A stretch of 64,000 nt of DNA from an uncultured delta proteobacterium (GCA_963796685.1 CAWCMR010000008.1:192001-256000); one strand, 5' to 3'. Shown: positions 15,491 through 59,860, counted from the first letter of the stretch. Notes: a model not told the origin generated them from the sequence alone. Translations and numbers: made by a program.

Positions 15491-17763
15491 GGTTTCGCCT
15501 GGTCCACAAGCTCGCCACGTACCTGCTGGCCGCCACCGCCGTGTTCACGCTCGGCACCTCCGGCATCCTGTCTTCTTTCACCTTGGTGCTGGTGGTTCTC
15601 TTCTCGGCGCTGTCCTGGTACGCGGATGTGGAGACCCGCATCGGCCAACGCATCGGCCGGGCGACGGTCCTGTTCAATGTGGTGACCCTGGTCCTGCTGG
15701 CCGGCGCGGTCTTTCAAGTCGCGCGCAGCTTTCCCGATGTCGACCTCCTGCCCTTCCTCGATTTCGTCCTCTTCCTCCTCGTGCTCAAGCTGTGCCAGCG
15801 CCGCTCCAACCGCGACTACCTGCAGGTCTACATTCTGTCCTTCCTGGTGATGCTGGCCGCCGCCTGGTTGGCCACCAGCGTGATCTTCATCGTGGGGTTC
15901 GGTTTCTACGTCCTGCTCGCCACCTGGACCCTGGTGCTCTTCCACCTCCGCCGCGAGATCGAAGAGAACTACATCGTCCGCCACGCCAGCGAATCGAAGA
16001 CCGAGCAGGTCACCGCCACCCGCGTGCTCAACTCGCGCCGGGTGGTGGGTCCGGCCTTCTTCGCCACCACCGGCGTGGTGGCGTTGTTCGTGCTTCTGGG
16101 ATCGTCGCTGGTCTTTGCCCTGGTGCCACGCGTGGGCCTGGGCTTCATCCTGGGCGGCGTCCGCCGTCCCGTCGGCGTGGCCGGCTTCACCGACGAGGTC
16201 AAGCTGGGCATGTACGGCGTGATCTCCACCGACAACGAAACCGTCGTGCTTCGCTCGCAGGTCCCGGCCATCGCGGCCATCGCCGACGACGGCATCCGCA
16301 ATCGGGTCATATCGTCCCTATACTGGCGCGGCACCGTCTACGACACCTACGACAGGGGCCAATGGCTGCGTTCGCGCGACGCGAAGACGCGCACCCGGCT
16401 GGCCTCCTTCCAGTCGCCCATCGAGCTTTCCCGCGGCTACCTTCTCACCGACCCGTTCGAGGTCGATCCTCCGCGCGGCCGGCGGGCCGCGATCAGCGGC
16501 GCCATCGAACAGACCGTCGAGATCGTCGCTCTGTCGCACCCCGTGGCCTTCGCGCTCGACCGCCCTGTGCTGTTCGAGATTCCCCCACCGCCCGCGGGCT
16601 CATTCACGGCGGTCGACCTGGAAGCGCGCTGGTCCGACGAGGTGTCGCTGCGCATGTTCCGCGTGAACCCCGCGAATCCCTACGACCGGCACCAGGCCAT
16701 GACCGAATTTCTGGGTGCCCGCTACCGCGTCTACTCCCGCGAGGCCGATCGCGCCCACCCCGGACGTGCCAACCTGCCCGTGGAACAACTGGCGCCCAGG
16801 GTCTTCGACAACTACTTGCGGATTCCCGCCTCGCTGACCGCGCGCGTGTCGGCCTTGGCCAGGGACATCACGGCCGGACAGGCAACGCCCGCCGCCAAGG
16901 TGCAGGTGGTGGTGGCGTGGTTGCAGCGAACCCACGGCTACACCACGAATCTGAAACGCGACGAGCGCATCGCCGATCCGCTGGAGGACTTCCTTTTCGC
17001 CGAGAAGGACGGCCACTGCGAGTACTTTGCGTCCGCGGCGGCCATCCTCTTGCGCGCCGGCGGCGTGCCCACGCGCTACGTGAATGGTTTCCTAGGCGGG
17101 GAATGGAACGACCTGCGCCAGGCCATCACGGTCAGGGAGAACCGCGCGCATTCGTGGATCGAAGCCTATCTCGGTCGCGAAGGCTGGGTGCGCGTCGATG
17201 CCACGCCGGCTCTCAACCGCAATTCGCGCATGGGCACGTTCCGACAACTGCTCGACTCCGCCGAGCTGCTCTGGAATCGCTGGGTCGTGGAATACAACGC
17301 CAGCCAACAGCTCCTGCTGGCCCAGCGACTGGGGAAGAGGCTCGGATTCTCGGGTCGATCCTTCGTCGGCGGACATCGTGCCACCGGACTTACGCGGCGG
17401 CAGGCACTGGTCGTCACCGGTATCCTGATCCTCGCCATCGCCGTCATCAGTCAACGCAAACGCCTGCTCGGCTGGCGCAGAGGACAGTCGGCCGGGGACA
17501 GAGCCCAGCCCGGCGAAGTCCCCATCGCCCGCGTCTACCACGCGACGGTCAAGCGCCTGGCCGCCGCCGGCCTGCCTCGCCGGCCGTGGGAAACTCCGCA
17601 CGAATACCTCGCCCGCCTGGAAGACACCAGTCTGGAAGGCGCGGACGTGCTCGCGCGCCTGACCGAGCTTTATGCCTCCGCGCGCTACGGCGACGTGGAG
17701 ATCCCCCCCGACGTCGTGATGCGCATCCGGAGCGAATGCGGCCAGATCGGCATTTCGGAGTAG
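15487..17763 (+). CDS. TgpA-like transglutaminase (DUF3488 + transglutaminase + DUF4129)
   Basis: GTG overlaps the DUF58 stop. Multi-TM N-terminus, LYWRG, GHCEYFASA, AHSWIEAY, WVRVDATP, ETPHEY...ARYG. Confidence 0.88.
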   Translation: MRFRLVHKLATYLLAATAVFTLGTSGILSSFTLVLVVLFSALSWYADVETRIGQRIGRATVLFNVVTLVLLAGAVFQVARSFPDVDLLPFLDFVLFLLVLKLCQRRSNRDYLQVYILSFLVMLAAAWLATSVIFIVGFGFYVLLATWTLVLFHLRREIEENYIVRHASESKTEQVTATRVLNSRRVVGPAFFATTGVVALFVLLGSSLVFALVPRVGLGFILGGVRRPVGVAGFTDEVKLGMYGVISTDNETVVLRSQVPAIAAIADDGIRNRVISSLYWRGTVYDTYDRGQWLRSRDAKTRTRLASFQSPIELSRGYLLTDPFEVDPPRGRRAAISGAIEQTVEIVALSHPVAFALDRPVLFEIPPPPAGSFTAVDLEARWSDEVSLRMFRVNPANPYDRHQAMTEFLGARYRVYSREADRAHPGRANLPVEQLAPRVFDNYLRIPASLTARVSALARDITAGQATPAAKVQVVVAWLQRTHGYTTNLKRDERIADPLEDFLFAEKDGHCEYFASAAAILLRAGGVPTRYVNGFLGGEWNDLRQAITVRENRAHSWIEAYLGREGWVRVDATPALNRNSRMGTFRQLLDSAELLWNRWVVEYNASQQLLLAQRLGKRLGFSGRSFVGGHRATGLTRRQALVVTGILILAIAVISQRKRLLGWRRGQSAGDRAQPGEVPIARVYHATVKRLAAAGLPRRPWETPHEYLARLEDTSLEGADVLARLTELYASARYGDVEIPPDVVMRIRSECGQIGISE

Positions 17764-45904: not shown

Positions 45905-46184
45905 CGATACACCTCCACGAATTCGCGAACTGCTATTGGGGGACAGTCTCCACGACGGTGACACAACAGGTCATCAGCGCGATGCTGCACCATCCCCTAA
46001 GAAAGGCAAGAGGCGACTTGGCGCGTACTGACTTTTGATGGGATGCCGTGTGGTCCGCGTCACCTGGGCTTGGTTGCGAAGACGGAGGCGATCGAAAATG
46101 CTCGGCCGGCAGACGGAGCCTGCACGCTCTCCGACGAGAATTCGCAGAACCGATCGTAGTCCGTAAACATCCTATGGATACCCC

Positions 46185-48861
46185 TTGTCAACGTATCGAG
46201 AACCGGAACAAAGCTTCGACGAGCACGTCGCCACCCGCTACCGGCTCTATTCCGGCCTTCTACTCGGCCTGCCTTACAACCTGCTGCAACGGGTGGGGAG
46301 GCTCTTGCCGGTTTTTACCGAGCACTGTCGCAAAGGCCTGCAACAGAAGGAGTCGCCCAGCGCCATCGTGGAGAGGTTCTTCGCGGAGAACCCCGCGCTC
46401 ACGGATGTCTCGCAGAGCGATGCGATCTTTCTCTTCCTGCAACTCATCGAGCGCCAGGTCGTACTGTTCGACGCCCTCGAGGACGCATCCTTCGGCCAAA
46501 CCCACGACCTCGACGCGCCGGGAAGCGTGTCCCAGATCGTCGAGGAGATCTTTCGCGACGACCGCCGCGCGGATCTGGCGAAACTCCTGGACCAAACCGC
46601 CACGCGCATCGTGCTGACCGCGCATCCCACGCAATTCTATCCGGACACGGTCCAGGAAATCATTCACGATCTCCGCTCGGCCCTGAGCCGCAACGCCCCG
46701 GCAGAGGTGGAGAGGCTACTCCTCCAACTTGGCAAGACGCGCTTTTCCAACCACGAGCGTCCGACACCCGTGGACGAGGCACGCAGTGTCCTGCGCTCCC
46801 TCGAAGACGTGTTCTATCCCGTGCTCTCGGGCATCGCCGCGCGCATGCTGGTCGTAGCGCACCGTCGCGCACGGCTGCCAGAGCACCTGCCGAAGCGTCC
46901 CAACATTCAGATCGGCTTTTGGCCGGGCGGCGACCGCGATGGCAATCCCTTCGTCACCGCCGCGGTCACCCGCGAAGTCGCGCGCCTGCTCAAGGAGCGG
47001 GTGCTCGAGCAACACCACGCCACCGCGGTCGCGCTGGCCCGGCGCCTGACCTTCGAAGGCGTCCACAGCAAGATCCAAGGTATTGTCGCCCGCTTGCGCT
47101 CGACGTGGCTTCACGCTGCCGACATCGGTCGCAACGGAGCCGGTGGCCATGCCGTGGCTGGCAGCACGCCCTATGCCACGGTGACGGAGCTGCAGTCCGA
47201 GCTACTCCAGCTGCGCAAGCTCATCGTTCGCGATCACCAGAGTCTGTTTTTGGACGAGCTCGACGATCTCATCGTCAAAGTCCACCTCTTCGGATTCCAC
47301 TTCGCCTCGCTCGATTTGCGCCAGAGCAGCGATGTCTTCTTCTCGAGTCTGCGTGAGATCGCGGAGGGCATGGGCGAGACCAACGCCTTCTCGGCATCCG
47401 ACCGTCTCGCCTTGACCAGGGCCGAGTCTGCCCAGCAGGTCCCGTTCGACGTGCTGGAGCGCCTTCTCGGCCTGGTCGAGCCCTTGTCCGCAGAAGCCGT
47501 CGCCCGCCTCTCGCCTCTTGCCAAGGACACCTTGGAAGTTCTTGGCCTGGTACCGAAAATCCAGGAGAGCAACGGCGAGCTCGGGCTCCATCGCGTGATC
47601 ATCAGCCACACCCGCGGACCCGAGGATCCCATGGTGGTGCTCGTGCTGGCGCGATTGGCGGGTCTTTTGCCGTCGGCCGGGCGCTTGGATATCGTGCCCT
47701 TGTTCGAGTCCATCGACGATCTGGAGCACGCCGAGGCCATCATGGGACGACTTCTGCAATCTCCCGCCTACCGCGAGGTCCTCGATGCACGCGAACAGCG
47801 GCAGGTGGTCATGCTGGGGTTCTCGGACGGCACCAAGGATGGCGGGTATCTCACCGCCAACTGGAGCATTCGCCGGGCCAAGCGTCGCCTGACCAAACTC
47901 GGGCGCAGCCAGGGCGTGCGCATGATCTTCTTCGACGGACGCGGCGGACCGCCGGCGCGCGGCGGCGGCAACACGCATCGCTTCTACCGTTCGCGGGACT
48001 CCCTGATCGAGCAGTGGGAAACCCAGACTGACCATCCAGGGCCAAACCATCAGCAGCAATTTCGGAAGCCCCGAAATGGCTTGCTACCATGTGGAACAAC
48101 TCTTCACCGCGAACATCGAGAACCACTTGTCTCCGACCCAAGGCGAGGATCCCGCGCCGGAATTTGGGCCCCTGATGGACGAGCTGTCGAGCTTGTCCTT
48201 CGAGGCCTACCGCAAGTTGCGCGACAACCCGGCCCTCATCACCTTTCTGGCCGAATGCAGTCCCCTGCCACTTTTCGACCACCTGACCAACGCAAGCCGG
48301 CCGGTAAGCCGTCGCGCCTCGCAGACCCTCGATTTGGAAAGCCTACGCGCCATCCCCCTGGTCGCGACCTGGAGCGTGCTCAAGATCCAGATCTCCGGTT
48401 TTTACGGGCTTGGCTCGGCCCTGGAACAAGTCATCGACTCGGGCCGCGAGGAGGAGCTGCAGCGGCTGTACCGCCACTCGCGCTTTTTCCGCGCCCTGGT
48501 CGACAACACAGCCATGAGCGTCATCAAATCCCGTTTCGATATCACCGCGCACCTCGAGCGTGACGAGCGATTCCGAACGCTCTGGGGGCAGATCCACGAT
48601 GAAGCCGTGCGCGTCGAGCGAAGCATCCTGCGTATCACCCGACAGCCGTGGCTGCTGGCGAATGACCCCCTCGTCAGGGCCAGCATCCGCTACCGCGAGG
48701 AAATCATCCTACCCTTGTTGGTCATCGTTCACGATGCCTTCGCCCGCTACAACGCCAATCTGCGCGCGGGTAGCGCGGGCACGGAACGGGCGGTGCTGGC
48801 TCGGCGAATGGCTTTGAAGGGCATCGCCGCGGTCATCAACGCCACCCGCAACGCCGCCTAG
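46185..48861 (+). CDS. ppc: Phosphoenolpyruvate carboxylase (+1 frameshift at 48027)
   Basis: VLTAHPTQF, GGDRDGNP, IVPLFE, MLGFSDGTKDGG, DGRGGPPARGGG; removing A48027 restores QLTIQGQTISSNFG; LRAIP; ends RNAA. Confidence 0.9.
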
Positions 48862-48971
48862 CCCCAAACCTGCCCGCACACGAAAGTATTGAAGGTTTGC
48901 CGCACTCCGGATTAGTCTCGCTTTGCGCAGCGCGAACACACTGCGTGAACAGCAACCAGGAGAGGTGAAGA

Positions 48972-50272
48972 ATGGTCCGTTCCAGCCGCTGCACGTATAT
49001 TCTCGCAAGCACAGGTGCCTTGATGTTCGCTGCCGGTTGTTGCCATTGCCCGGCGCCGGCGCCCATGGCCCAGCCACCCCGCCCCATGGTCTACGCACCC
49101 GCGCCGGTCCCCGTGCCCGCGCCCGCTCCGGTCGTTACACCCCCGCCGGCCGAGGCCGCGCCCGCATCGACGGCGACCATCGTGCTCAAGGACGCCGGAC
49201 TGCAGACACCCGAGTGCGCCTTGTGGGATCCCGATCAGGATATCTACTTCCTCAGCAACATCAACGGCGATCCAACGGCCGTGGACAAAAATGGATTCAT
49301 CTCGAAGATCAGCCCGGAGGGCAAGGTCATCGAGCTCAAGTTCATCGAAAGCGGCAAGAAGGGCGCCGAATTGAACGCGCCCAAGGGCATGGCCATCGCG
49401 GGCAACATTCTTTACGTGGCCGATCTGGACGTGGTTCGCAGGTTCGACCGCAAGTCAGGCAAGCCCAGGGGCAAGATTGCGATCAAAGGCTCCGTCTTTC
49501 TCAATGCCCTGACCGTCTCGCCCGATGGCAAGGTGCTGTACGTTTCGGACAGCGCGGTCAAGATCAACGCGGGCGGCTTCACGGGCACGGGCGGCGACGC
49601 CATTTTCGAAATCGATCTCAAGAAGCGCTCCGTGCGACCGCTCATCCAGAACAAGGCGTTGCACTGGCCGAACGGCGTGCTCGCAGACGACACCGGCATC
49701 TGGTCGGTCTCGCTGGGCGCGAACGAGTCGTTCACGTCAGCTACAAGGGCGAGCTCGGCTCGGTCACCAAGCTTCCCAAGGGCGCTCTCGACGGTATCGT
49801 CCGTCTCGCCGACAATTCGCTCTTGATTTCGAGCTGGGATGCATCCGCCGTCTATCGCGGCCTGCCCGGTGGCGAGTTCAAGGAGATCATTTCCGGCGTG
49901 ACCTCGCCGGCGGCCATCGGACTCGACAGCAAGCGACGCGCGGTGCTCATCCCGATCTTCATGGCATCGGCCTTCGAGATTCACCCCTTGCCCGTGCTGC
50001 CCCTGCTCGATCCTCCGGTGCCACCGGCGCCCGTCGCAAAGCCCGAGGCCGCACCGGCCCCCGTTGCCTCACCGGTGCCTGCCCGGCCCGCTTCACCAAC
50101 GGCGATGGCAGCGGCCCCCGTGCGCGCAACGGCGCCGGCCCCCGTGCCAGCGCCTGCACCAGCCGCCGCACCGGCACCCGCCGCCGTGCCAGCGCCCGCC
50201 GCCGTGCCAGCGCCGGCACCAGCTCCGGCCCCCGCGGCTCCGAGTGGCCCGCGCCCGGCGCGCTGGCAGTAG
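48972..50272 (+). CDS. SMP-30/gluconolactonase-like beta-propeller lipoprotein with Pro/Ala-rich termini (-1 frameshift at ~49727)
   Basis: GLQTPE..WDP..D.YFLSNING, LNAPKGM, FLNAL, WPNGV, continuing in another frame as LPKGALDGI..ISSW..SPAAIG.D. Confidence 0.75.
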
Positions 50273-50445
50273 GGTCGTCGACGTCCCGTATACCTCTCGG
50301 TGCGGCCTAGGGTGATGAAGGCCGCACTGCTGGCCCTGGCCTTCGTTTGTGCGACCAGCGCCTCCGACGAAACGTGTTGCGCGTCCTGCCTGACAAGGTC
50401 GACCTGGCATCCCTGCAAGCGATCTACGGCGAAGTCCTCTACAAC

Positions 50446-51003
50446 TCAAATGAACAGCGTGGCCTTGCTCGATCCTGCCTGGCCGAGGAACGACCCGACG
50501 CCAGCGAATTTGAGACCGGGGTAATCGATGAGCTCTTCATGCTTCATGCCCATGAGATTCATGCTCATTTCGCACACGTAGATTTCCACGCCAGACTCAC
50601 CGGCGGTCTTGATGAGCTGTTCAAGCGACATCACGTTCTTCTTCTTCATGAGGCCTTTGAGCATCGCGGTGCCCATGCCTGCCATGTGCATCTGCGAGAG
50701 TTTCAGGTTCGGCGCGCCCTTGGGCAGCATCTTGCCGAACATGCGGCCCATCATGTCCTTCTTGACCGGCCCCTTCTTGGGATCGCGCAAGGCGGCCGTG
50801 GCCCAGAAGGTGAAGAACATCGTCACCTTCTCGAACATGGCCGCCGCGCCGGTGGCGATGATGAAGGCCGCCAGCATGCTGTCGAGGTCGCCGCTCATCA
50901 CCACCATGCTGAATTTGTCCTCGGGGGCGTTGGCTTTGATGGTCTCGAGCTCGGACTCGAGGGCTTCTACGCGAGATTTCAGGGACGCGAGCTCATCGGA
51001 CAT
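50446..51003 (-). CDS. DsrE-family (DsrE2-like) sulfurtransferase
   Basis: SGDLD..AAFIIATGAAAM..VTMFFTFW, LSQMHMAGMG, YVCEMSM (active Cys), AGVGSFL. Confidence 0.88.
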   Translation of the reverse strand: MSDELASLKSRVEALESELETIKANAPEDKFSMVVMSGDLDSMLAAFIIATGAAAMFEKVTMFFTFWATAALRDPKKGPVKKDMMGRMFGKMLPKGAPNLKLSQMHMAGMGTAMLKGLMKKKNVMSLEQLIKTAGESGVEIYVCEMSMNLMGMKHEELIDYPGLKFAGVGSFLGQAGSSKATLFI

Positions 51004-51033
51004 GGGTTCTCCAGGGTGATGGGGTGGTCGGAA

Positions 51034-52254
51034 TCAGGGCAGCGAGGCCACTCTCTCGGTCGAGCATCCGGGACGAGGCACGACTTCGACCGCGGGGTCG
51101 CGGCGCATGTGCATGAAGAGAAGAGCGAGCGGGCGGCCCACCGCATGGAAGAGCTTGGTCGCGCCCATGAGCAGCACCAGCTCCATGGCCATCACGGAGT
51201 GGACCAGCAGGATCCAATCATTGACCGGGGCCTGGATGGCGAAGGTGACGGCGATTTCGATCCAGAACCCGGTCACGGCAAGCAGGAACAGCAAGATCAG
51301 CAACCAAGCATCGGCGGCCCGGGTGGTGGCCGCGCTCGGACCATCGCGACGAAGGCGACGAACGATGGCCAGCAGCACGCCGACAAGCAGGGCAAGACCG
51401 GCCCCGGTGCCCAGCACCCGCGCCGGCCAAAACACCGCCAGATGAAGCGTGTCCTTCAGCAGGTAGAGAACCACCAGGTCGAGGGTGGTGGCCAAGAGGA
51501 GTCCGGCGAAGCCACCCAGGATCAACATGTGAATGAACCAGGGGTTGCGTAGCCAGCCCAGCCCCTTGGGGCTTGACTCCGACCGCTGCCGCCGCATGGT
51601 CGCTACGTCCACAAGGGTGTTTCGCAGCGCCGCCAGAAGACTCGTCCGTGTGGCAGGGTCTTTCTGCAAAAGACGCTTTCGTCGCGGCCTGACGAAGCGA
51701 AAAAGCGAGACGGCCAAAGATAGGGTCAGCAACCCGCCGACTGCGATGCCCACGGCGTGAATCGTGCCGTAGGCAACCAGCGCCCGGAACGGCCAGCTGT
51801 CGACGCCGGCTTCAAATCCTTCTTGTGCCCCCACCTTGATACGCAGAAGGAAAAGCCCCAGCACCATTGCGATGCCGAGCGTCACCAAGATCGGTCCCAC
51901 CACGCCCCGGAGCATGAGCTTTCCGATGCCGGTAGGTTCGAGACGCGCAACCGTCCAGCGACGAACCGCGGCCATGTATTCGCCGGGGTCGGCCTGGCGC
52001 GGACAGGTTTGCGTACACTCGCCGCAGTGGTGGCACAGCCAGGGCTCGTCGCTGGCCAGCAGCTCTTGCGCGCGCCCCAGCTGACCCAAGCGAATGGCCC
52101 GGCGGGGAAAGCTCTCGGCTCCCTCGGACAAGGGGCAAACGGCCGAGCAATTGCCGCAATTGAAGCAGGCCGAGATGTCGACGGCACCGTAGCGTGCGAT
52201 GTCGCGCAGAAGACCGGGTCTGACCAGGGGAGCGTTCACGGTTGACTCCTTCAT
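51034..52254 (-). CDS. QmoC-like membrane subunit (2x[4Fe-4S] HdrC-like domain + NarI-like heme b membrane domain)
   Basis: CFNCGNCSAVCP and WLCHHCGECTQTCP, then ~6 TM helices with His residues (FIHML, LVHSV, KLFHA). Confidence 0.8.
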   Translation of the reverse strand: MKESTVNAPLVRPGLLRDIARYGAVDISACFNCGNCSAVCPLSEGAESFPRRAIRLGQLGRAQELLASDEPWLCHHCGECTQTCPRQADPGEYMAAVRRWTVARLEPTGIGKLMLRGVVGPILVTLGIAMVLGLFLLRIKVGAQEGFEAGVDSWPFRALVAYGTIHAVGIAVGGLLTLSLAVSLFRFVRPRRKRLLQKDPATRTSLLAALRNTLVDVATMRRQRSESSPKGLGWLRNPWFIHMLILGGFAGLLLATTLDLVVLYLLKDTLHLAVFWPARVLGTGAGLALLVGVLLAIVRRLRRDGPSAATTRAADAWLLILLFLLAVTGFWIEIAVTFAIQAPVNDWILLVHSVMAMELVLLMGATKLFHAVGRPLALLFMHMRRDPAVEVVPRPGCSTERVASLP

Positions 52255-52257
52255 CCC

Positions 52258-52545
52258 TTACTTGCGCGTATAGGCGATGTAGTCGCCTTGCTTGGGGCCA
52301 TCGGCCACTTCGTTGTATTTCCGCAGCGCCGCCACCTGCCACAGAACCAAACGAGCGTCGGCGCCAAGCTCGGCCGCCAGCTCGGGCACCGTCCTCGGGC
52401 CCTTGGCCAAGGTATCGAGCACGGCCTTGCGCAGACGCATGCGCTCCTTGCGCTCGGCTGCGTGCGCGTCGGACGGTTTTCCGTGCAGCTCACGCGCGCT
52501 CTGCAGCTCTCGTTTGTAGCGCTCGGACATGGCCTTCTCGGTCAT
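52258..52545 (-). CDS. Small winged-helix protein of the Hdr-like operon
   Basis: SD GAGGAGG; AVLDTLAKGPRTVPELAAELG..RLVLWQVAALRKYNEV. Confidence 0.75.
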   Translation of the reverse strand: MTEKAMSERYKRELQSARELHGKPSDAHAAERKERMRLRKAVLDTLAKGPRTVPELAAELGADARLVLWQVAALRKYNEVADGPKQGDYIAYTRK

Positions 52546-52555
52546 CGCGCCCTCC

Positions 52556-54373
52556 TCATGTCGCCACGATGGCATCGACCATCGCCTCGTATTGGTCCAG
52601 CGACCATCCCGCCACATCCAGCGCCCGCGGCGCGCACACGGCGACGCATGCACCACAACCCTTGCACAGCGCCGGGTTGATGTGCGCGACCTTGTCCGAC
52701 TGTCCAGCGCCATTAGGCTCGCATTTCACCATCGAGAGCGCCCCCTCGTAAGCGCATTCCGCGAGGCAGTCGCCACACCCATTGCAACGGTCGAGGCGCA
52801 CGGTCGCGATGAAGGGATCGAGCGACAATTCGCTCTCGGACAGCAGAATGCCCGCCTTGGCCGCGGCCGCACCCGCGCCAGCCGCGGCCTCGGAAGCGTC
52901 CATGGGTGCCTGACAGGTCCCCGCCAGGAAGATGCCATTGTTGGCGACCTCCACCGGGCGCAGCTTGGGGTGCGCTTCAAGCAAAAAGCGATCGGCGCCC
53001 ACCGGCAACTTCATCGACTCGACCAGCTCGGCGATAGGATTCGGCAACATCCCCGTGGCGAGCACGACCAGATCTGCAGCAACGGCGATCTCCTCGTTCC
53101 AAGTGAGGGCATCCTTGAAGCGAACTTGCAGCGGGCTTTCCGCCTGCGCCGGAGCGGCCTCAACCACCGGGGGCTCTTCCCCGGGATAGCGGAAGAAAAG
53201 CGCGCCGCCCTTGCTGGCCCGCTCGTACATCGCCTCCTGGCCACGGCCGTAGGTGCGAATGTCGCGGTAAAGGTCGTAGACCTGCGTCTTGGAAAACTGC
53301 TCTTGCACTTGGCCAACCGCATTCATCGCGGCGGCACAGCATACGCGCGAGCAGTAGTCGTTGATCTTGCCGTCGGCGCCGGGCTCGTGCACGCCTTCGA
53401 TTTGCCGGCTGCCCACGCAGTGGATGATGGCCAGATTGCGCACCACCTTGCCTTGCCAAATCAGGGCGCCGTCCTTGCTGCGCGCCAACGTGGGCAAGGC
53501 TTCGAGCAACGCCGCCAGCGTCACCACACGCTCGTCGCCCCAGCCAAGCTCGCCCGCCGAGGGCCGATAGAGGTCGAACCCCGTGGCCAGCACCAGCGCA
53601 CCCGCGGTGACGGGTTCGCGGTCGCGCAGGCGCACGATGAAATTGCCCACGTAGCCGTCGACCTTTTCGACCGCCACACCCGTCAGAACGGTGATGAGCG
53701 GCTCGGCATTCACGCGCGTTTCCAGCTCGCCCGTAACTTTCGAGCCATCTTCGCGCGTTTGATGGAGGCGCCCGAGCGTGCGCAACTTGCCGCCCAGCTG
53801 CCCTTCACGCTCGATCAGAATCACAGGTAACCCGATGCCGGCCAAGGCAAGCGCCGCCCGCATGCCGGCGAGTCCGCCACCGATCACCGCCACGCGCCGT
53901 TCGGCGGGTACCAAGATTGCCTCAAGCGGATCCTTCAGCACAGCCGCGCGCACCCCTGCCCGAACCAAGCTCGCCGACTTCGCGGTGGCCGCGGCGTGAT
54001 CCGCCTTGTGCACCCAGGACGCCTGCTCGCGCACGTTCACGTGCTGATAGAGGTACGGATTCAGCCCGGCTTTCTGCATGGCCCGGCGGAAGGTGCTTTC
54101 GTGGAGAGCGGGTGAGCACGCGGCGACCACGACCCGATTGACGCCCTTGTCGCGAATGTCGTCGATGATCAGGTTTTGCCCCGGATCGGAGCACATGAAG
54201 ACGAAGTCCTTCGCGGCAACCACGTCGGCATCGAGACCGGCGGCCTCGGCGACCGCCTTCACGTCCACCACGTCCGAGATGTTCCCGCCGCAATGACAGA
54301 CGTAGACACCGACCTTGGGCTTGTCCTGTGCGGGCGGGGCAGACACGACGGGTAAGTGCAGCTTCTCGGTCAT
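52556..54373 (-). CDS. hdrA: HdrA/QmoB-like flavoprotein (N-terminal HdrA domain + FAD domain + C-terminal ferredoxin)
   Basis: ATG overlaps the upstream stop. VGVYVCHCGGNI, FMCSDPGQ, AACSP, VIGGGLAG, HCVGSR..YCSRVCC, CNGCGDC..C, CKGCGACVAVC. Confidence 0.88.
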   Translation of the reverse strand: MTEKLHLPVVSAPPAQDKPKVGVYVCHCGGNISDVVDVKAVAEAAGLDADVVAAKDFVFMCSDPGQNLIIDDIRDKGVNRVVVAACSPALHESTFRRAMQKAGLNPYLYQHVNVREQASWVHKADHAAATAKSASLVRAGVRAAVLKDPLEAILVPAERRVAVIGGGLAGMRAALALAGIGLPVILIEREGQLGGKLRTLGRLHQTREDGSKVTGELETRVNAEPLITVLTGVAVEKVDGYVGNFIVRLRDREPVTAGALVLATGFDLYRPSAGELGWGDERVVTLAALLEALPTLARSKDGALIWQGKVVRNLAIIHCVGSRQIEGVHEPGADGKINDYCSRVCCAAAMNAVGQVQEQFSKTQVYDLYRDIRTYGRGQEAMYERASKGGALFFRYPGEEPPVVEAAPAQAESPLQVRFKDALTWNEEIAVAADLVVLATGMLPNPIAELVESMKLPVGADRFLLEAHPKLRPVEVANNGIFLAGTCQAPMDASEAAAGAGAAAAKAGILLSESELSLDPFIATVRLDRCNGCGDCLAECAYEGALSMVKCEPNGAGQSDKVAHINPALCKGCGACVAVCAPRALDVAGWSLDQYEAMVDAIVAT

Positions 54374-55680
54374 GGCGTCCTCGCGGACTTGGTGGTGCGC
54401 AGGTGCCCGAGCGCCTCCATGGCCGCCGAACCGGCATCCATGATGGAATCCACGATGTCCTTGGGGCCACTGGCCGTGCCGGCCGAAAAGACCCCACGAA
54501 TGTTGGTCAGGGTTGGCGAGTGCAGCAGGTGCGGCTGATCGACGAAGCCATCGGGCGAGACGCCGACGCCACAGCTGTCGAACAGCGCCGGATCGGCCCC
54601 TGGCACCATGCCGAGCGAAAGCACCACCATGTCGTGGCGCACCTCCTCGACCCGGCAGTCGTCCTCTTGCCGCTCGATGCGCAGGATAGGATTGTGTTCC
54701 GCGTCCTCCGCCACGCGCGCCACCTTGGCCTTCACGAAGTTGATGCCCATGGCTTTGGCCGACGCGTAGAACTGCTCGTAGCCTTTGCCGAAGGCGCGGA
54801 TGTCCATGTAGTAGATGGTGATATCTGCGATGGGCAGCGACCCCGAGAGCAACACGGCCTGCTTGATGGCGTACATGCAACAGACGCGCGAGCAGTAACC
54901 CGTGCCGAGTGACAGGTCCCGACTGCCGGCGCACTGAACGAAGGCAATGCTGTCCGGGATCTTGCCGTCCCCTGGGCGAAGCACACGTCCATACGGTCCG
55001 TGCGGCGCAAGCAGCCGCTCGACCTGCATCGGCGTGAGCACATTGGGCAGCTTGCCCAGCCCGTATTGAGGCTTGGCGTCGACGGGTGTCAGGTGGCTGC
55101 CCGTGGTCATGATGACCGACTTGGCTTGCACCTCGATCTCTTTCGGTTTCTGTAGGAAGTCGATGCAATCCGTTGGACACGCCCTGGCGCAACGGCCGCA
55201 CCACGTACAAGTTTCGGGATCGAGAACTGCGTACTGCGGAATGGCGTTGGTGAAGGGGATGGCGATGGCCTTGGTGGCGCCGAGTCCATGCTCGTAGGCA
55301 TCCGGCTGGTACTCGGGACAGGCTTCTTCGCACAGCCGGCACCCGATGCAGTTCGCCTCGTCCACGTAGCGCGGCTTCTTGCGCAACCGCCCGCGAAATC
55401 CGTCCCCAACGCGCGCGACCGAAAGGACCTCCGTGTGGGTGAGGGTCTCGATGCGGGCGTGGTGGGCCACCGAGGCCATGCGCGGCGTGGTGATGCAACT
55501 GGCGCAATCCAGGGTCGGGAACACCTTACTCAAGTTGATCATGCGACCGCCGATGCTGGCGTCCTTCTCCGCCAGCACCACGCGCACGCCCTGGTCGGCC
55601 GCCTCCAGGGCGGCCTGCATGCCCGCGATGCCGGCCCCCACGACCAAGACATCCGTCTCGATGATCTTCGGCTGGTCCAT
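54370..55680 (-). CDS. hdrA: HdrA-like flavoprotein (FAD core + inserted ferredoxin)
   Basis: VVGAGIAG, KVFPTLDCASC, CIGCRLCEEACP, CTWCGRCARACP, QCAGSRD..YCSRVCCMYAIKQA, YMDIRAFGKGYE, GPKDI. Confidence 0.9.
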   Translation of the reverse strand: MDQPKIIETDVLVVGAGIAGMQAALEAADQGVRVVLAEKDASIGGRMINLSKVFPTLDCASCITTPRMASVAHHARIETLTHTEVLSVARVGDGFRGRLRKKPRYVDEANCIGCRLCEEACPEYQPDAYEHGLGATKAIAIPFTNAIPQYAVLDPETCTWCGRCARACPTDCIDFLQKPKEIEVQAKSVIMTTGSHLTPVDAKPQYGLGKLPNVLTPMQVERLLAPHGPYGRVLRPGDGKIPDSIAFVQCAGSRDLSLGTGYCSRVCCMYAIKQAVLLSGSLPIADITIYYMDIRAFGKGYEQFYASAKAMGINFVKAKVARVAEDAEHNPILRIERQEDDCRVEEVRHDMVVLSLGMVPGADPALFDSCGVGVSPDGFVDQPHLLHSPTLTNIRGVFSAGTASGPKDIVDSIMDAGSAAMEALGHLRTTKSARTP

Positions 55681-55700
55681 GATTGGCCCGAACGTCAGGG

Positions 55701-55949
55701 TCACTTCTTCCGTGTTACGAAGATGCTGTCGTATCCGTCGCGCTCGGTGAAGCCCATGAACAGCTGGCCTGTCTTTTTGCACCAGGCGGGGATGTCTTCG
55801 CGGCTGCCCTTGTCCCCGCTGAGGATCTCCAGGATTTTGCCCACGGGCACCGAGCCCATCGCCTTCTTCGCCTCGAGCAAAGGGCCTGGGCAGGCCATGG
55901 CTCGCGCATCCACCACTTTGTCGCCCTTGAGATTCACCAGGTCGGTCAT
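55701..55949 (-). CDS. tusA: TusA-family sulfur carrier
   Basis: 82 aa, VDARAMACPGPLL, DIPAWCKKTG. Confidence 0.9.
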   Translation of the reverse strand: MTDLVNLKGDKVVDARAMACPGPLLEAKKAMGSVPVGKILEILSGDKGSREDIPAWCKKTGQLFMGFTERDGYDSIFVTRKK

Positions 55950-55979
55950 ACTTTCTCCATAGCTTTGGGTTGAGATCGC

Positions 55980-56285
55980 CTAATTGACTTTCAGTCCCGC
56001 GCAATACAGACCCCGCACACATCTCAGCAAGTCGCCAATCTTCGGATCCTTGATCGAATAGAAGATGCGATTGCCATCGCGGCGCTTGCTGATCAGGCCT
56101 TTGTTCTCCAGCAGCCGCAGGTGCTGGCTAACATTGCCCTTGGTGGTACCGATCTGCTCCAGCAGCTCTCCAACGAAGCGCTCGCGCTCGATGAGCAGAC
56201 AGACGATGAGCAAGCGCAGCGGGTGCGCAACACTACTTAGTACCCGCGCGGCCTTCTCGGCATGTTGCAATTGACGTTGATCCAT
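55980..56285 (-). CDS. ArsR/SmtB regulator, BigR/SqrR (persulfide-sensing) type
   Basis: AHPLRLLIVCLL (helix-2 Cys), VSQHLRLL, C-terminal LYC. Confidence 0.85.
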   Translation of the reverse strand: MDQRQLQHAEKAARVLSSVAHPLRLLIVCLLIERERFVGELLEQIGTTKGNVSQHLRLLENKGLISKRRDGNRIFYSIKDPKIGDLLRCVRGLYCAGLKVN

Positions 56286-56290
56286 GGTCC

Positions 56291-56731
56291 TCAGGCAAGC
56301 TTGGGATGGGATGAGTCGGCTATACTCTTGCGCATCTCGCCGATCTCCTTGAGAAAGGCCGACCGGCATACGGTGCAGATTGTCGTCAGCTTGAGTCGCG
56401 TGGTCGGGATGCCGCGCTCCTTCATGAGCGTGTAGACGCGATCGATGCGCTTCGACAGCCGCGTATACGCACCCTCGTAGGGACAGTCCGAACCCGAGCT
56501 CATGATGATGATGCCCGCGATCCCCTTGTCGAAAGAGCGCAAGTAGAACGATTCGGGAAACATCACCGGATCGGGCACGCGCAGGATGTACGTGTTGGGG
56601 TCGTACTGAAGCCGTGCTTGTCCTACGGCGTTGGCGCCCGGATCGGAGCTGTGCAGCGTGGTCAGGACGAGGATCCCAGGGACCCGGTTCGCGCCAGGGC
56701 TTGGATCCTTCTTCTGTATCTCGGTATTCAT
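56291..56731 (-). CDS. MvhD/FlpD-like protein lacking most [2Fe-2S] cysteines
   Basis: GANAVGQARLQY...ILRV...F.KG..GI.....DCPY..G...RI......L...GI...RL follows the MvhD pattern. Confidence 0.75.
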   Translation of the reverse strand: MNTEIQKKDPSPGANRVPGILVLTTLHSSDPGANAVGQARLQYDPNTYILRVPDPVMFPESFYLRSFDKGIAGIIIMSSGSDCPYEGAYTRLSKRIDRVYTLMKERGIPTTRLKLTTICTVCRSAFLKEIGEMRKSIADSSHPKLA

Positions 56732-56744
56732 GGTCTGCTTTGCT

Positions 56745-56779
56745 GTTTAGTAGTTAAGCGATAACTAAACTAGAGTCAA
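56745..56779 (-). promoter_or_regulatory. Promoter and inverted-repeat operator of the Hdr-like operon
   Basis: AT-rich island with perfect IR TAGTTA-N5-TAACTA (56751-56767) and minus-strand TTGACT -35 at 56779-56774. Confidence 0.6.
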
Positions 56780-56844
56780 GCCCGAATGTGATCTTTTTCA
56801 CGGCGGGCAAGCAATTTGCGTCTCATCCAGTTACACTTCGGCCC

Positions 56845-57696
56845 ATGGTCACCTTTCACGGGCAACTTCGCATGTGGCTTCCCTGGGTCGCGTCCGCGGC
56901 CTTCGTCTTGACCGGTGGGTCGTGCCGACACAAGGAAGGCAAACCCACCGCTCCGGGCGCCCATGCAAGCCTTGCGACGCCCTCCCTGCTTGGCAACACG
57001 CCCGCCGGCACTCCTTCCGTTGGCCACGGCGCCTCGTCAGCCATCGATGCCCAAGCCCACGATCCCGCGCACCCTCCTATCGACTGCCCGCTGCGCAAGC
57101 TGGGCATCGATCCACTGCACCTTCGGCCCTTCGATCAGGTCGAGAAGTACATCGCCTTCTTGGAAAAGCCCGAGCGTGCCATCTGGCAAAAGCCCGATGA
57201 GGTCGTCAAAGCGCTTGGCCTCACGGGAACAGAGACCATCGACGACGTCGGCGCGGGCTCGGGCTACTTCACGTTTCGATTCGCGCGGGCCTTGCCCCAC
57301 GGCAGGGTCATCGCCGCGGATACCGAGGCGGAGATGATCCGGCATATCCATCATCGGGCCATGAGCGACGGCATCCAGAATATCCAGGCCGTGCTCATCA
57401 AGCCCGACGATCCCGAGGTCAGCAAGGACGCGGACTGGGTCTTCATCTGCGATGTGCTCCACCATGTTCCCGATCGCTCGGCATGGCTCCACCGAGTCGC
57501 TTCGCAGATGAAGACCGGGGCCAGGCTGGCGCTCATCGAGTTCAAGCAAGGCAAGTTGCCCCAGGGACCGCCCGAGTCGGCCAAGATTCCGCGTGCCCTG
57601 CTCATCGAGCTTGCCACCAAGGCCGGCCTCAGGCTCGAAGGCGAAAAGACCACGCTTCTGCCCTATCAAGTCTTCCTGGTGTTCAAGAAGGCCTGA
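56845..57696 (+). CDS. Class I SAM-dependent methyltransferase with lipoprotein-like signal
   Basis: WQKPDEV, DDVGAGSGYFT, DVLHH; N-terminal AAFVLTGGSC. Confidence 0.85.
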   Translation: MVTFHGQLRMWLPWVASAAFVLTGGSCRHKEGKPTAPGAHASLATPSLLGNTPAGTPSVGHGASSAIDAQAHDPAHPPIDCPLRKLGIDPLHLRPFDQVEKYIAFLEKPERAIWQKPDEVVKALGLTGTETIDDVGAGSGYFTFRFARALPHGRVIAADTEAEMIRHIHHRAMSDGIQNIQAVLIKPDDPEVSKDADWVFICDVLHHVPDRSAWLHRVASQMKTGARLALIEFKQGKLPQGPPESAKIPRALLIELATKAGLRLEGEKTTLLPYQVFLVFKKA

Positions 57697-57747: not shown

Positions 57748-58236
57748 CTATGGGATTTTCCCGGTGGATGTCGCGCCGTCGTTCTTCAGAGATGACGGCA
57801 GCAGCGTGCGAGCGATGATGTCCGCTGCCGAGGCGACGATCCGAGCGCACGGGCGGATCGCGTAGTATTCTGCGGTTCGTTCCGAAGGGTCGGGATTGAA
57901 CGTACACGACGCCTTCTCGAGCAGCTCTCTGCAACAAATGGTCCCGTGTCGCTCGGTGAACGCATGGACCATCCTCTTGATCAGATCGTACAGCCTCGTC
58001 TTGGTCTCGATGTCCCCTGCCGGGTAGGGTCCGACATGCAAACCGGCAAGGTAGGCCATGGCGCCGACCGCGCCGCAGGTCTCCCGCAGTCCGCCGATGC
58101 CGGCGCCAAAGCCGGCGGTGGATTTCAAAACGAAGCATGGCTCGAGGCCAAAATCCTCGGCGAACGCCGCCGTCGTCGACTGGGCGCAGTTGTAGCCCTG
58201 CCTGAAGAGCTCCTCGGCCTTGTCGCTGTGTTTCAC
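57748..58236 (-). CDS. C_GCAxxG_C_C family putative redox protein
   Basis: GYNCAQS, GFGAGIG..ETCGAVGA, GTICCRELL, RPC. Confidence 0.88.
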   Translation of the reverse strand: MKHSDKAEELFRQGYNCAQSTTAAFAEDFGLEPCFVLKSTAGFGAGIGGLRETCGAVGAMAYLAGLHVGPYPAGDIETKTRLYDLIKRMVHAFTERHGTICCRELLEKASCTFNPDPSERTAEYYAIRPCARIVASAADIIARTLLPSSLKNDGATSTGKIP

Positions 58237-58447
58237 GCGGGTGCCCCTCAGCCATCCGCACAAGCAACTCGCAGCGCTTGACGATGTCGCGCGAGATGAC
58301 GGGTCTTCATGCCCGCACGATAGATCCGAAGTGGGCGATACGCGCTCATATCTTTTGCACGCTTGGAGCCAGACCGTGGCCGGAAGGGTTCGCAAATTGA
58401 AACAGCGGTCGACGGCGCGGCAGGTGCAGATACACGCGGCCGAGTCC

Positions 58448-58481
58448 TTGACCCAAGTAATGAACATATGCTAATAATACT
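58448..58481 (+). promoter_or_regulatory. Sigma-70-like promoter with SmtB/CzrA-like imperfect palindrome
   Basis: TTGACC...TGCTAATAAT, containing ATGAAC-ATAT-GCTAAT; upstream of the ZIP transporter remnant. Confidence 0.4.
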
Positions 58482-58487
58482 CCGTGG

Positions 58488-59009
58488 GTGATGACGCTTC
58501 TATCTATCCTGGCTGCCGCGCTGGCGGGCGGCCTACTGACCGTGCTCGTCGCAGGTGCCGTGCTGGCGGTGAACGCAACGCTACTGGACCGGGCCCTACC
58601 CCGTCTTGTCAGCTTCTCCACGGGCGCCCTGCTCGGCGCCGCCCTCATGGGGATGATTCCCCACGCCGCACGGGTGCTACCGGTTTCCACCGTCGCGCGC
58701 GTGGTCCTTGTGGGGCTGGTTCTTTTCTTCGTGCTCTCGGATGGAAAGCGCATCCCCATCCGTGTTTCGACCGCGTCGCTGCGCGACGATCGGGGAAAGG
58801 TCATGGGAGGAGCGGAAACCTTCCGCGATCTGAGTGTCATCGAAGAGCTGCGCAAGGAGATCAAGGGGCGGCGCCAGGTGGGTGACATCGTCAGTCGCAG
58901 CCCGTCCATGCGCCAGGTCCTCGAGGTACTCCCGCGCATCGCCGAAAGCGAAAGCACGATCTTGCTCCAGGGCGAGACGGGCACGGGCAAAGAGCTTGCG
59001 GTGCCGTGA
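58488..59009 (+). pseudogene. Chimeric remnant: ZIP metal transporter N-terminus fused to a PAS/sigma-54 activator fragment
   Basis: LVSFSTGALLGAALMGMIPHA (ZIP), then IRVSTASLRDDRGKVMGGAETFRD (PAC) and ILLQGETGTGKELA, stopping right after Walker A. Confidence 0.75.
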
Positions 59010-59011
59010 GT

Positions 59012-59860
59012 ATGAGTACCAGCACCGGCACGATCACAATCACCATCCTGGTCGACAATCGGGCCAACGAGGGACTCGTCGCCGAGCACGGCTTTTCTGC
59101 CTGGATCGAGACCGCGGGCCGGCGAATTCTCTTCGACACCGGCCAGGGCGTGGCGCTCGCCCAAAACGCCGACGCGCTCGGCGTCGCCCTGAGCTCCGCG
59201 CACGCCTTGATCTTGAGTCACGGCCACTACGACCACACCGGCGGTGTGTCTCTGGTGGTCGAACGCGCACCGGCGGTTCAGGTCTACTGCCATCCGGCGG
59301 CGAATGGCCATCGCTACGCTGTCCGCGATGGGGTGGCCAGGCCGATCGACATGCCCCATTCGTCGGTATCGGCACTCGCGAATCTCCCGGCGGAGAGACT
59401 GCACTGGACCGAAAGGGCACGGGAAATCGCCCCGGGCATCGGTCTCTCCGGCCCCATTCCCCGGCGCACCGACTACGAGAATGTCGGCGGCCCGTTCTTT
59501 CTCGACATCCAGGGAAAGCACGCCGATCCCGTCGAGGACGACATGGCCCTTTGGCTGCGCACGGAGAGAGGGCTCGTCGTTGTTCTCGGGTGCGGCCACG
59601 CGGGCATCATCAACACGCTCGACCATGCCCTGCGCGTGGGTGGCTCTTCCCACATTCATGCGGTCCTCGGGGGCTTCCACCTGCGCGAAGCGAGCGATTC
59701 ACGCATCGACCGCACCCTGTCGGCGCTCGGGAAGCTTGCACCCGACGTCATCGTCCCATGCCATTGCACGGGAGAGCGCCCTATCGAAGCTCTGAAGAGC
59801 GTCTTTGGCGATCGCGTGCACCTCGAAGCGGCCGGGGCGATCCACAGCTTCGGGTCCTGA
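59012..59860 (+). CDS. MBL-fold metallo-hydrolase (COG1237-type)
   Basis: ITILVDN, AEHGFS, LFDTG, SHGHYDHTGG, GCGHAG, GGFHL, PCHCTG. Confidence 0.9.
   Translation: MSTSTGTITITILVDNRANEGLVAEHGFSAWIETAGRRILFDTGQGVALAQNADALGVALSSAHALILSHGHYDHTGGVSLVVERAPAVQVYCHPAANGHRYAVRDGVARPIDMPHSSVSALANLPAERLHWTERAREIAPGIGLSGPIPRRTDYENVGGPFFLDIQGKHADPVEDDMALWLRTERGLVVVLGCGHAGIINTLDHALRVGGSSHIHAVLGGFHLREASDSRIDRTLSALGKLAPDVIVPCHCTGERPIEALKSVFGDRVHLEAAGAIHSFGS

Follow-up and report, generated by a model that had tools for sequence, protein, structure and literature searches.

The canonical (type I) QmoABC complex of sulfate reducers and green sulfur bacteria brings together two HdrA-type proteins that bind flavin adenine dinucleotide (FAD), an MvhD module and an iron-sulfur/dihaem b membrane subunit, and it contains no HdrB. 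Neukirchen et al. 2023 (PMC10504309) separate this complex from a type II Qmo, present in organisms without Dsr or Apr. A further module of the heterodisulfide reductase (Hdr) type, the cytoplasmic sHdr system, is described in PMC11094781, PMC10451225 and PMC12423496: it contains HdrB1/B2 and HdrC1/C2, requires the lipoate-binding protein LbpA, and is associated with TusA/DsrE3 and with an ArsR-type repressor (sHdrR/SoxR) responsive to sulfane sulfur. Here we analyze an operon in a 64-kb stretch of DNA (hereafter the window) from an uncultured delta proteobacterium (GCA_963796685.1, CAWCMR010000008.1:192001-256000), in which a Qmo-type set of redox subunits is encoded with TusA, a DsrE2B-type protein and an ArsR-type regulator. 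On sequence grounds, the operon is a second, paralogous Qmo-like complex beside the canonical aprBA-qmoABC of the same genome. We lean, with modest confidence, towards a menaquinone-linked, type II-like Qmo complex that would act on the sulfane sulfur of TusA and DsrE2B rather than on adenosine 5'-phosphosulfate (APS) reductase, and that would be induced by persulfide.

The operon comprises eight co-directional frames on the minus strand (50446-56731), each packed tightly and supported by Pfam and NCBIfam profile searches, in a window of ~65% G+C that holds many spurious frames (Table 1). The start of the QmoB-like gene overlaps the stop of the QmoA-like gene by 4 nt (ATGA), and the remaining intergenic gaps are, in operon order, 5, 30, 20, 10, 3 and 30 nt. 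These matches and coordinates confirm the eight gene identities, the packing and the single direction proposed in a first-pass annotation of this DNA, made by a model from the sequence alone.

Table 1 The operon and its upstream elements, listed in the direction of the genes (positions in the 64-kb window)
Feature	Position	Strand	Length	Evidence and remarks
TTGACT, -35-like hexamer	56774-56779	-		Read from the sequence; predicted function
TTTAG-N14-CTAAA, operator-like inverted repeat	56746-56769	.		3' of the -35-like hexamer and 5' of the first ATG
MvhD/FlpD-like protein	56291-56731	-	146 aa	PF02662, 54 bits
ArsR	55980-56285	-	101 aa	PF01022
TusA	55701-55949	-	82 aa	PF01206, 72 bits (cut-off 28.6)
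QmoA-like HdrA-type flavoprotein	54370-55680	-	436 aa	NF040770 (HdrA2), 451 bits, profile positions 134-559
QmoB-like HdrA-type flavoprotein	52556-54373	-	605 aa	NF040770, 457 bits, best stretch at profile positions 1-231
wHTH, small ArsR-like winged-helix protein	52258-52545	-	95 aa	HTH_20 only, E 0.009, below cut-off
QmoC-like membrane subunit	51034-52254	-	406 aa (or 401 aa from GTG 52239)	PF13183 and PF02665; NF038018, 172 bits
DsrE2B-type (DrsE_2) protein, soluble	50446-51003	-	185 aa	PF13686, 166 bits

Together, the MvhD-like, QmoA-like, QmoB-like and QmoC-like proteins carry the same domains as canonical QmoABC, except that MvhD is not fused. The first-pass annotation had held that the layout fits none of the described classes. 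As a statement about the protein family this does not stand: type II Qmo had already been noted in PMC10504309, and the domain content is that of QmoABC. The operon appears to fit type II Qmo, and by model score its QmoA-like protein is closer to HdrA, with 451 bits on the HdrA2 model versus 344 bits for the canonical QmoA of the genome. We infer that it is a type II Qmo, the Ammonifex degensii and 'Ca. Vulcanisaeta moutnovskia' sequences of that paper standing outside the trees given below.

Comparison with the canonical complex provides the points of distinction. While canonical QmoB carries a fused C-terminal MvhD in 7 of 7 cases examined, the MvhD of the operon is a separate protein with remodelled cysteines, and the extra winged-helix protein of the operon, a probable subunit, has no counterpart in canonical QmoABC. 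The canonical QmoC of the same genome (contig C7) reaches 334-335 bits on NF038018 (cut-off 300), whereas the QmoC-like protein of the operon reaches 172 bits. The canonical genes adjoin aprBA, whereas the operon is linked to TusA and DsrE2B, mostly in genomes without aprA. At the canonical loci examined, no TusA, DsrE2 or wHTH gene was found.

The HdrA motifs and the MvhD fold are shared with HdrABC-MvhAGD and related Hdr complexes of methanogens (PDB codes 5odc, 8rvu and 7bkb), and the two flavoproteins of the operon together span all HdrA domains. In contrast to those complexes, HdrA is here split into two proteins, a single polypeptide joins the HdrC-like domain to a dihaem domain in the membrane, and neither HdrB/CCG nor hydrogenase is encoded; the MvhD-like protein keeps one (C83) of three aligned cysteines and gains an invariant CxxC. 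The likeness to sHdr lies in an Hdr-type redox module encoded with TusA, a DsrE-family carrier and an ArsR-type repressor. It ends with the composition of the module: the operon encodes a pair of HdrA-type proteins along with a membrane subunit of the quinone type, its carrier is of DsrE2B type, and no CCG domain is present in the window.

In the full-text literature searched, a TusA/DsrE-linked Qmo-like operon is not described; outside that search lie a review on HdrA (doi 10.1016/j.bbabio.2021.148379), the paper on 'Ca. Vulcanisaeta moutnovskia' cited in PMC10504309 and the supplementary figures of PMC10504309 itself, any of which may bear on the point. The main text of PMC10504309 does not link Qmo to TusA, DsrE, ArsR or a winged helix: TusA appears in it twice, in a figure legend and in a reference, never on Qmo, and ArsR is absent, while TusA and MvhD are absent from the one supplement searched. 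Nor is a carrier-linked Qmo-like operon described in the passages covered of PMC10504309, PMC12142623, PMC13490349, PMC12998232, PMC6018796 and PMC11094781. The individual components and the Qmo/Hdr type of architecture were known before; the literature searched contains no description of the conserved coupling to sulfur carriers, of the unfused and remodelled MvhD or of the winged-helix subunit.

The host assembly (G000; 7.3 Mb in 26 contigs, 88.6% complete, 6.5% contaminated, with the window on contig C8) also encodes a canonical system. Its single aprA match (868 bits) lies on contig C7, surrounded by aprB, QmoA, QmoB with a fused C-terminal MvhD, and QmoC over its family cut-off, and the same stretch carries dsrP, dsrA, dsrB and a GltD-like (DsrL-like) gene. 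Because the G+C content of C7 equals that of the contig of the window, and because G001, which holds one of the two nearest loci (L009), also carries aprA and dsrB, we take C7 as the organism's own. The presence of a canonical aprBA-qmoABC elsewhere in the genome argues that the locus is a paralogous second Qmo-like system, and not a Qmo bereft of its partner. The first-pass annotation had described the complex as lacking AprAB and HdrB. This is correct for the window, in which neither AprA nor a CCG/HdrB domain was found, but not for the genome, given the C7 genes and the CCG/HdrB-type domain (PF02754) in four frames on contigs C3, C10, C25 and C5 (none on C8); the absence of HdrB is moreover normal for any Qmo. 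A match to sat (TIGR00339) was not found in this genome, which at 88.6% completeness is not evidence of absence.

On C7, dsrA is read in two frames (L008 14945-16175, corresponding to about 31944-33174 of C7 in G000), with 14945-15748 matching profile positions 2-136 and 15357-16175 matching 131-386; the split reflects either a pseudogene or a sequencing indel. The dsrB gene is intact and is followed by the GltD-like, DsrL-like gene (PRK12771, 496 bits, cut-off 516).

The relation of the two types of complex was examined with two quick trees. The QmoC tree (IQ-TREE, 97 rows) contains 84 cluster-type sequences, 10 canonical sequences (7 fetched beside aprA or aprBA, and 3 recognized by a score over the family cut-off together with a fused MvhD) and 3 others. 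Nine of the ten canonical sequences are united in one clade (SH-aLRT 100), set apart by a branch of 2.85 changes per column, and the QmoC-like protein of the window is on the other side of it, within 78 rows that include no canonical sequence, an inner split with a support of only 59%. The tree of QmoA and QmoB (50 rows from 21 hand-picked loci, rows shorter than 80% of the query being dropped) resolves four separate groups: cluster-type A (22 rows, support 99), cluster-type B (14 rows, 100), canonical A (7 rows, 97) and canonical B (7 rows, 99). Both trees, although with small canonical samples, place the three Qmo-like subunits outside the aprBA-linked clades. Thus, while aprAB is present in the genome, the proteins of the operon do not fall in the canonical clades.

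Two further arrangements are seen in these trees. At the locus L090 (G030, contig C94), QmoA and QmoB belong to the canonical clades and QmoC groups with the cluster type, which suggests subunit exchange between the two Qmo types. Three loci of the host phylum form their own group in the QmoC tree (support 100): L103 and L106 have the order QmoA-QmoC-QmoB, and L100 has QmoB fused to MvhD and a QmoC below the family cut-off.

To place the operon among genomes, 17 QmoC-like relatives were aligned and used to scan species-representative genomes. Of at least 600 matching stretches, 556 or more encoded a relative, and the best 80 loci were kept and mapped with profiles made from the eight proteins of the window. 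In 61 of these 80, at least 4.7 kb upstream and at least 0.8 kb downstream of QmoC are available. TusA, MvhD, QmoA, QmoB, wHTH and QmoC occur on one strand in 60 of the 61 flanked loci (the exception is L058), and a DsrE2-like gene accompanies them in 54, downstream in 39 and upstream in 15. ArsR is present in 34 of the 61, and all eight genes in 30. The proposed linkage of tusA and dsrE to the cluster is therefore kept across loci, while that of arsR is kept in only 34 of the 61. TusA precedes the MvhD-like gene in 55 of 60 loci, usually directly; the order MvhD-ArsR-TusA is that of the window and of L009, L010, L011 and L016, and L020 also has MvhD first, with no ArsR found. The nearest loci, at 76-78% identity, come from organisms labelled 'delta proteobacterium', and one relative is labelled Polyangiaceae; the myxobacterial host suggested in the first pass is plausible. 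The cluster also occurs in FCPU426, Armatimonadota, Bacteroidota, Acidobacteriota, Chloroflexota, Verrucomicrobia, Ignavibacteria, Spirochaetia, Planctomycetota, Latescibacteria, Elusimicrobiota and Heimdallarchaeota. Within the host phylum, a QmoC-type match is present in 9 of 151 sampled genomes (G000 included), 5 of them over the cut-off.

The cluster is independent of Apr and Dsr. Searches of the host genomes of 50 of the 80 loci, chosen by hand to span taxa, gave aprA in 7 genomes, 6 of them over the cut-off, and dsrB in 9; these hosts are metagenome-assembled genomes (MAGs), and some of the absences may be false. The counts agree with the earlier proposal that the complex is not tied to AprAB. 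The genes beside the cluster in other lineages include several for enzymes of thiols or persulfides: fusions of coenzyme A-disulfide reductase with rhodanese, 3' of the cluster in both Acidobacteriota loci scanned (L063 and L064), members of the thioredoxin family in 10 loci (L026, from Bacteroidales, being the representative scanned) and a thioredoxin-reductase fusion (L035). In Bacteroidota, a single open frame encodes both the QmoB-like protein and the wHTH, and a GltD-type NAD(P)H module stands in the QmoA-like protein in place of the two-cluster ferredoxin insert seen in the window.

The Bacteroidota variant loci (L021, L024, L027-L029 and L038) begin with the DsrE2-like gene and have the QmoB-like protein fused to the winged helix; in L021, which was scanned with Pfam, the QmoA-like protein is ~950 aa long and includes the GltD-type NAD(P)H module. 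A gene of the FadL/TodX outer-membrane family is near the cluster in 14 loci, and upstream of it in L063, the locus scanned.

The two putative carriers retain the residues on which sulfur transfer would depend. TusA is highly conserved (mean column identity 68%), and all 65 rows aligned have Cys20 of its CPGP motif. Cys144 of the DsrE2B-type protein is likewise invariant (48 of 48 rows). Each is the only match to its family in the genome, PF01206 and PF13686, respectively. The solved relatives of the latter are 3pnx and 2qs7, of which 2qs7 is termed DsrE2B in PMC11094781. The two-helix membrane DsrE2 of the Allochromatium type was considered and rejected, as the protein scores 72.8 bits against NF047629 (cut-off 210) and has 3pnx and 2qs7 as its nearest solved chains.

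The redox subunits preserve the ligands of their cofactors. In the QmoA-like protein, a 2x[4Fe-4S] ferredoxin domain is inserted into an FAD domain; the protein matches methanogen HdrA (8rvv_A) with 368 bits, the FPTLDCxxC and CX12CX3CC motifs being aligned. All 14 of its iron-sulfur and CxxC cysteines (FPTLDCxxC, the eight ferredoxin cysteines and CX12CX3CC) are present in 59 of 59 rows. The QmoB-like protein starts with a four-cysteine domain, continues with an FAD domain and ends in a 2x[4Fe-4S] domain to which no MvhD is fused; the four N-terminal cysteines, the CX21CX3CC motif and the eight ferredoxin cysteines are conserved. QmoC-like combines an HdrC-like 2x[4Fe-4S] domain with a NarI/HdrE-like dihaem b domain, and conservation over 80 rows is 94-100% for eight of its cysteines and four of its histidines.

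The two small subunits are the unusual ones. The AlphaFold model of the MvhD-like protein (mean predicted local distance difference test, pLDDT, 84.6) superimposes on MvhD (5odc_D) with a TM score of 0.77 and a root-mean-square deviation of 1.6 Å. Of the three cysteines that MvhD has in the aligned part, C83 alone is retained (56 of 65 rows), while C119-x2-C122 is invariant (65 of 65 rows) and is absent from the MvhD chain that aligns through that region (8rvv_F). This invariant CxxC is a candidate persulfide-reactive site. Co-folding of the MvhD-like protein with TusA gave a score of 0.02 against a mark of 0.32, a result that counts neither for nor against binding. The model of the wHTH (pLDDT 90.6) shows two long helices and a winged helix, with a weak structural likeness to SmtB, CzrA and SqrR (TM about 0.5-0.58), and the protein is probably a subunit of the complex. 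A DsrC-like role for it was rejected, as it has no cysteine at all.

The ArsR protein and the region upstream of the operon provide insights on regulation. Its best matches in the PDB are BigR (3pqj), Rv0081, YgaV (3cuo) and SqrR (6o8k), and the two cysteines of BigR 3pqj and SqrR 6o8k, in helix alpha-2 and at the C-terminus, have their counterparts in Cys29 and Cys95; we take these to be the sensing residues. Against the NCBIfam BigR equivalog model the protein scores 68.4 bits, under the cut-off of 155. The 69 nt 5' of the first ATG have a G+C content of 39%, compared with ~65% for the genome, and contain the inverted repeat TTTAG-N14-CTAAA, which occurs once in the 64-kb window versus 0 expected from 100 shuffles. 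Four loci (L009, L010, L011 and L016) have the repeat at the same position 5' of the operon, and two others (L074 and L076) have it where the ArsR frame begins; these same six loci share the C...LYC pattern of the window ArsR. The arms of the repeat, of 5-6 bp, were recognized by reading and alignment and then followed with a pattern search; a repeat search (seed 6, minimum length 8) returned no upstream inverted repeat. A scan with the sigma-70 consensus called no promoter 5' of the first gene. The AT-rich upstream region with an inverted repeat, as noted in the first pass, is thereby recovered, although not the promoter call; regulation by persulfide is plausible, with BigR, YgaV and SqrR as best solved relatives and both cysteines aligned. 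The likeness to these regulators consists of the cysteine pair and of a palindromic predicted operator in the promoter region. They regulate genes of sulfide:quinone oxidoreductase (SQR), persulfide dioxygenase or rhodanese, whereas the ArsR of the window sits with a respiratory-type complex.

A working model for the reading that we favor can be drawn from these parts. The QmoA-like and QmoB-like proteins would form a heterodimer after the HdrA dimer, binding two FAD and seven [4Fe-4S] clusters. Electron exchange with membrane menaquinone would fall to the QmoC-like subunit through its two haems b and its two [4Fe-4S] clusters; the inserted two-cluster domain of QmoA-like is a likely ferredoxin port, the GltD-type replacement of this insert in Bacteroidota fits a third redox partner there, and the separate MvhD-like subunit may be the outlet towards the partner. 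Sulfane sulfur would be held as a persulfide on Cys20 of TusA and passed to or from Cys144 of DsrE2B, and the persulfide would be reduced to sulfide or, in the reverse direction, made from it. We favor reduction, that is, disposal or respiration of sulfane sulfur, because the neighbors of the cluster are reductases and most hosts have no oxidizing pathway. The BigR/SqrR-type ArsR would repress the operon at TTTAG-N14-CTAAA and would be released when sulfane sulfur bridges Cys29 and Cys95.

Several observations weigh against this reading. No persulfide or disulfide site is recognized in any subunit, and there is no CCG/HdrB domain; the flavoproteins show no free redox cysteine pair, the CxxC of QmoA-like being the one conserved in methanogen HdrA. 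The transfer of electrons from menaquinol to a persulfide is uphill at standard potentials, and thermodynamics favors the opposite flow; for reduction, low sulfide, the membrane potential or a second low-potential donor would be required. The regulation is not uniform: ArsR is missing from 27 of the 61 flanked loci, the BigR-like Cys...LYC pair is present in only 6 other loci, with the other cluster-linked ArsR proteins differing, and LysR or Crp/Fnr regulator genes stand beside the cluster in other lineages. As the TusA of the operon is the sole TusA of the genome, a link to the Dsr pathway is possible. Finally, the aprA-linked QmoC of L090 groups on the non-canonical side of the tree, so that the type of QmoC alone does not exclude an Apr partner.

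The same assembly may instead work in the oxidative direction, passing electrons of sulfide or carrier-bound sulfane sulfur to menaquinone as a cytoplasmic alternative to SQR that loads TusA. We regard this as rather unlikely. Sensors of the BigR/SqrR type typically induce sulfide-oxidizing genes, the flow from sulfide to menaquinone is downhill, and in this genome, which has dsrAB, a DsrL-like gene and no TusA other than that of the operon, TusA-bound sulfur could feed Dsr. However, 41 of the 50 host genomes have no dsrB and no downstream oxidizing pathway is evident in them, the neighbors elsewhere are reductases (CoA-disulfide reductase-rhodanese, thioredoxin and thioredoxin reductase), and no SQR-like catalytic cysteine pair was found beside the flavin.

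It is quite unlikely, in our estimate, that the substrate is something other than carrier sulfur. The complex would then be an electron-transfer or bifurcating module between quinone and ferredoxin (or NAD(P)H) serving another thiol, disulfide or protein, with TusA and DsrE2B acting in regulation, protection or maturation. The lack of a recognizable persulfide-reactive site, the unassigned roles of the wHTH and of the remodelled MvhD-like subunit, and the recurrence of thioredoxin genes nearby would all be accommodated. What this proposal does not explain is the constancy of the carriers: TusA (column identity 68%) is found in 60 of 61 loci, mostly directly before the MvhD-like gene, and DsrE2B, with its invariant cysteine, in 54 of 61, while the type of sensor points to sulfane sulfur.

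That the operon is a spare or condition-specific QmoABC for the APS reductase of the genome is highly improbable, for although the genome has aprBA, the domain content equals that of QmoABC and the aprA-linked L090 QmoC lies on the non-canonical side of the tree, aprBA already adjoins its own canonical qmoABC, 43 of the 50 cluster hosts show no aprA (in incomplete MAGs, so that a few of these may be false negatives), neither the QmoA-like nor the QmoB-like protein falls in a canonical clade, and it is TusA and DsrE2B, rather than AprAB, that the operon keeps as partners.

A more speculative version of carrier-sulfur chemistry, which we offer as a long shot, is a three-way flavin-based confurcating or bifurcating sulfane-sulfur oxidoreductase. 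In it, the HdrA-type FAD would couple the carrier persulfide/sulfide, menaquinone through the QmoC-like subunit, and ferredoxin through the QmoA-like insert (NAD(P)H in Bacteroidota), with the CxxC of the MvhD-like subunit standing in for HdrB. The potentials of the persulfide/sulfide couple (about -270 mV) and of menaquinone (about -74 mV) are such that the midpoint between quinone and ferredoxin is near the sulfur couple.

The surroundings of the operon within the window were also inspected. A divergent methyltransferase gene (56788-57693, +) adjoins the operon, with related frames near the cluster in L009, L010, L064 and L085, and beside it is a gene for a C_GCAxxG_C_C putative redox protein (57751-58467, -). 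A further frame (58464-59006, +) matches, at its end, positions 1-37 of a sigma-54 interaction domain (27.7 bits); the remainder of the domain was not found in the adjoining frames, and an MBL-fold gene overlaps at 58886-59857. On the downstream side, a Pro/Ala-rich frame without family match (48923-50272, +, and 50000-50499) lies in a stretch of 73% G+C. Beyond it, phosphoenolpyruvate carboxylase is read in two frames (46167-48858, +), 46167-48560 matching profile positions 331-625 and 48007-48858 matching 636-916, a split that is a frameshift or an assembly indel. The public sequencing runs listed are seven DNA runs, each with an operon share of at most 0.11, and no RNA run.

Many bacterial phyla without sulfate respiration have the operon. 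Should the three-way scheme be true, fermenters and soil heterotrophs of many phyla, none of them reckoned among the sulfur cyclers, would possess a class of energy-converting sulfur enzyme that has not been described. An Hdr/Qmo machinery without HdrB would need another sulfur site, for which the remodelled MvhD-like subunit is one candidate. A genome with both an AprBA-linked and a carrier-linked Qmo is a natural control, in which the regulation and the partners of the two are directly comparable. Should the complex act on sulfane sulfur, membrane-linked production or consumption of sulfide would extend to anaerobes and to soil and peat heterotrophs outside the classical sulfur guilds, for example Bacteroidales, Acidobacteriaceae, Chthonomonadales, Anaerolineae and Asgard archaea, and sulfur cycling of this kind would be missed by surveys that use dsrAB and aprA as markers.

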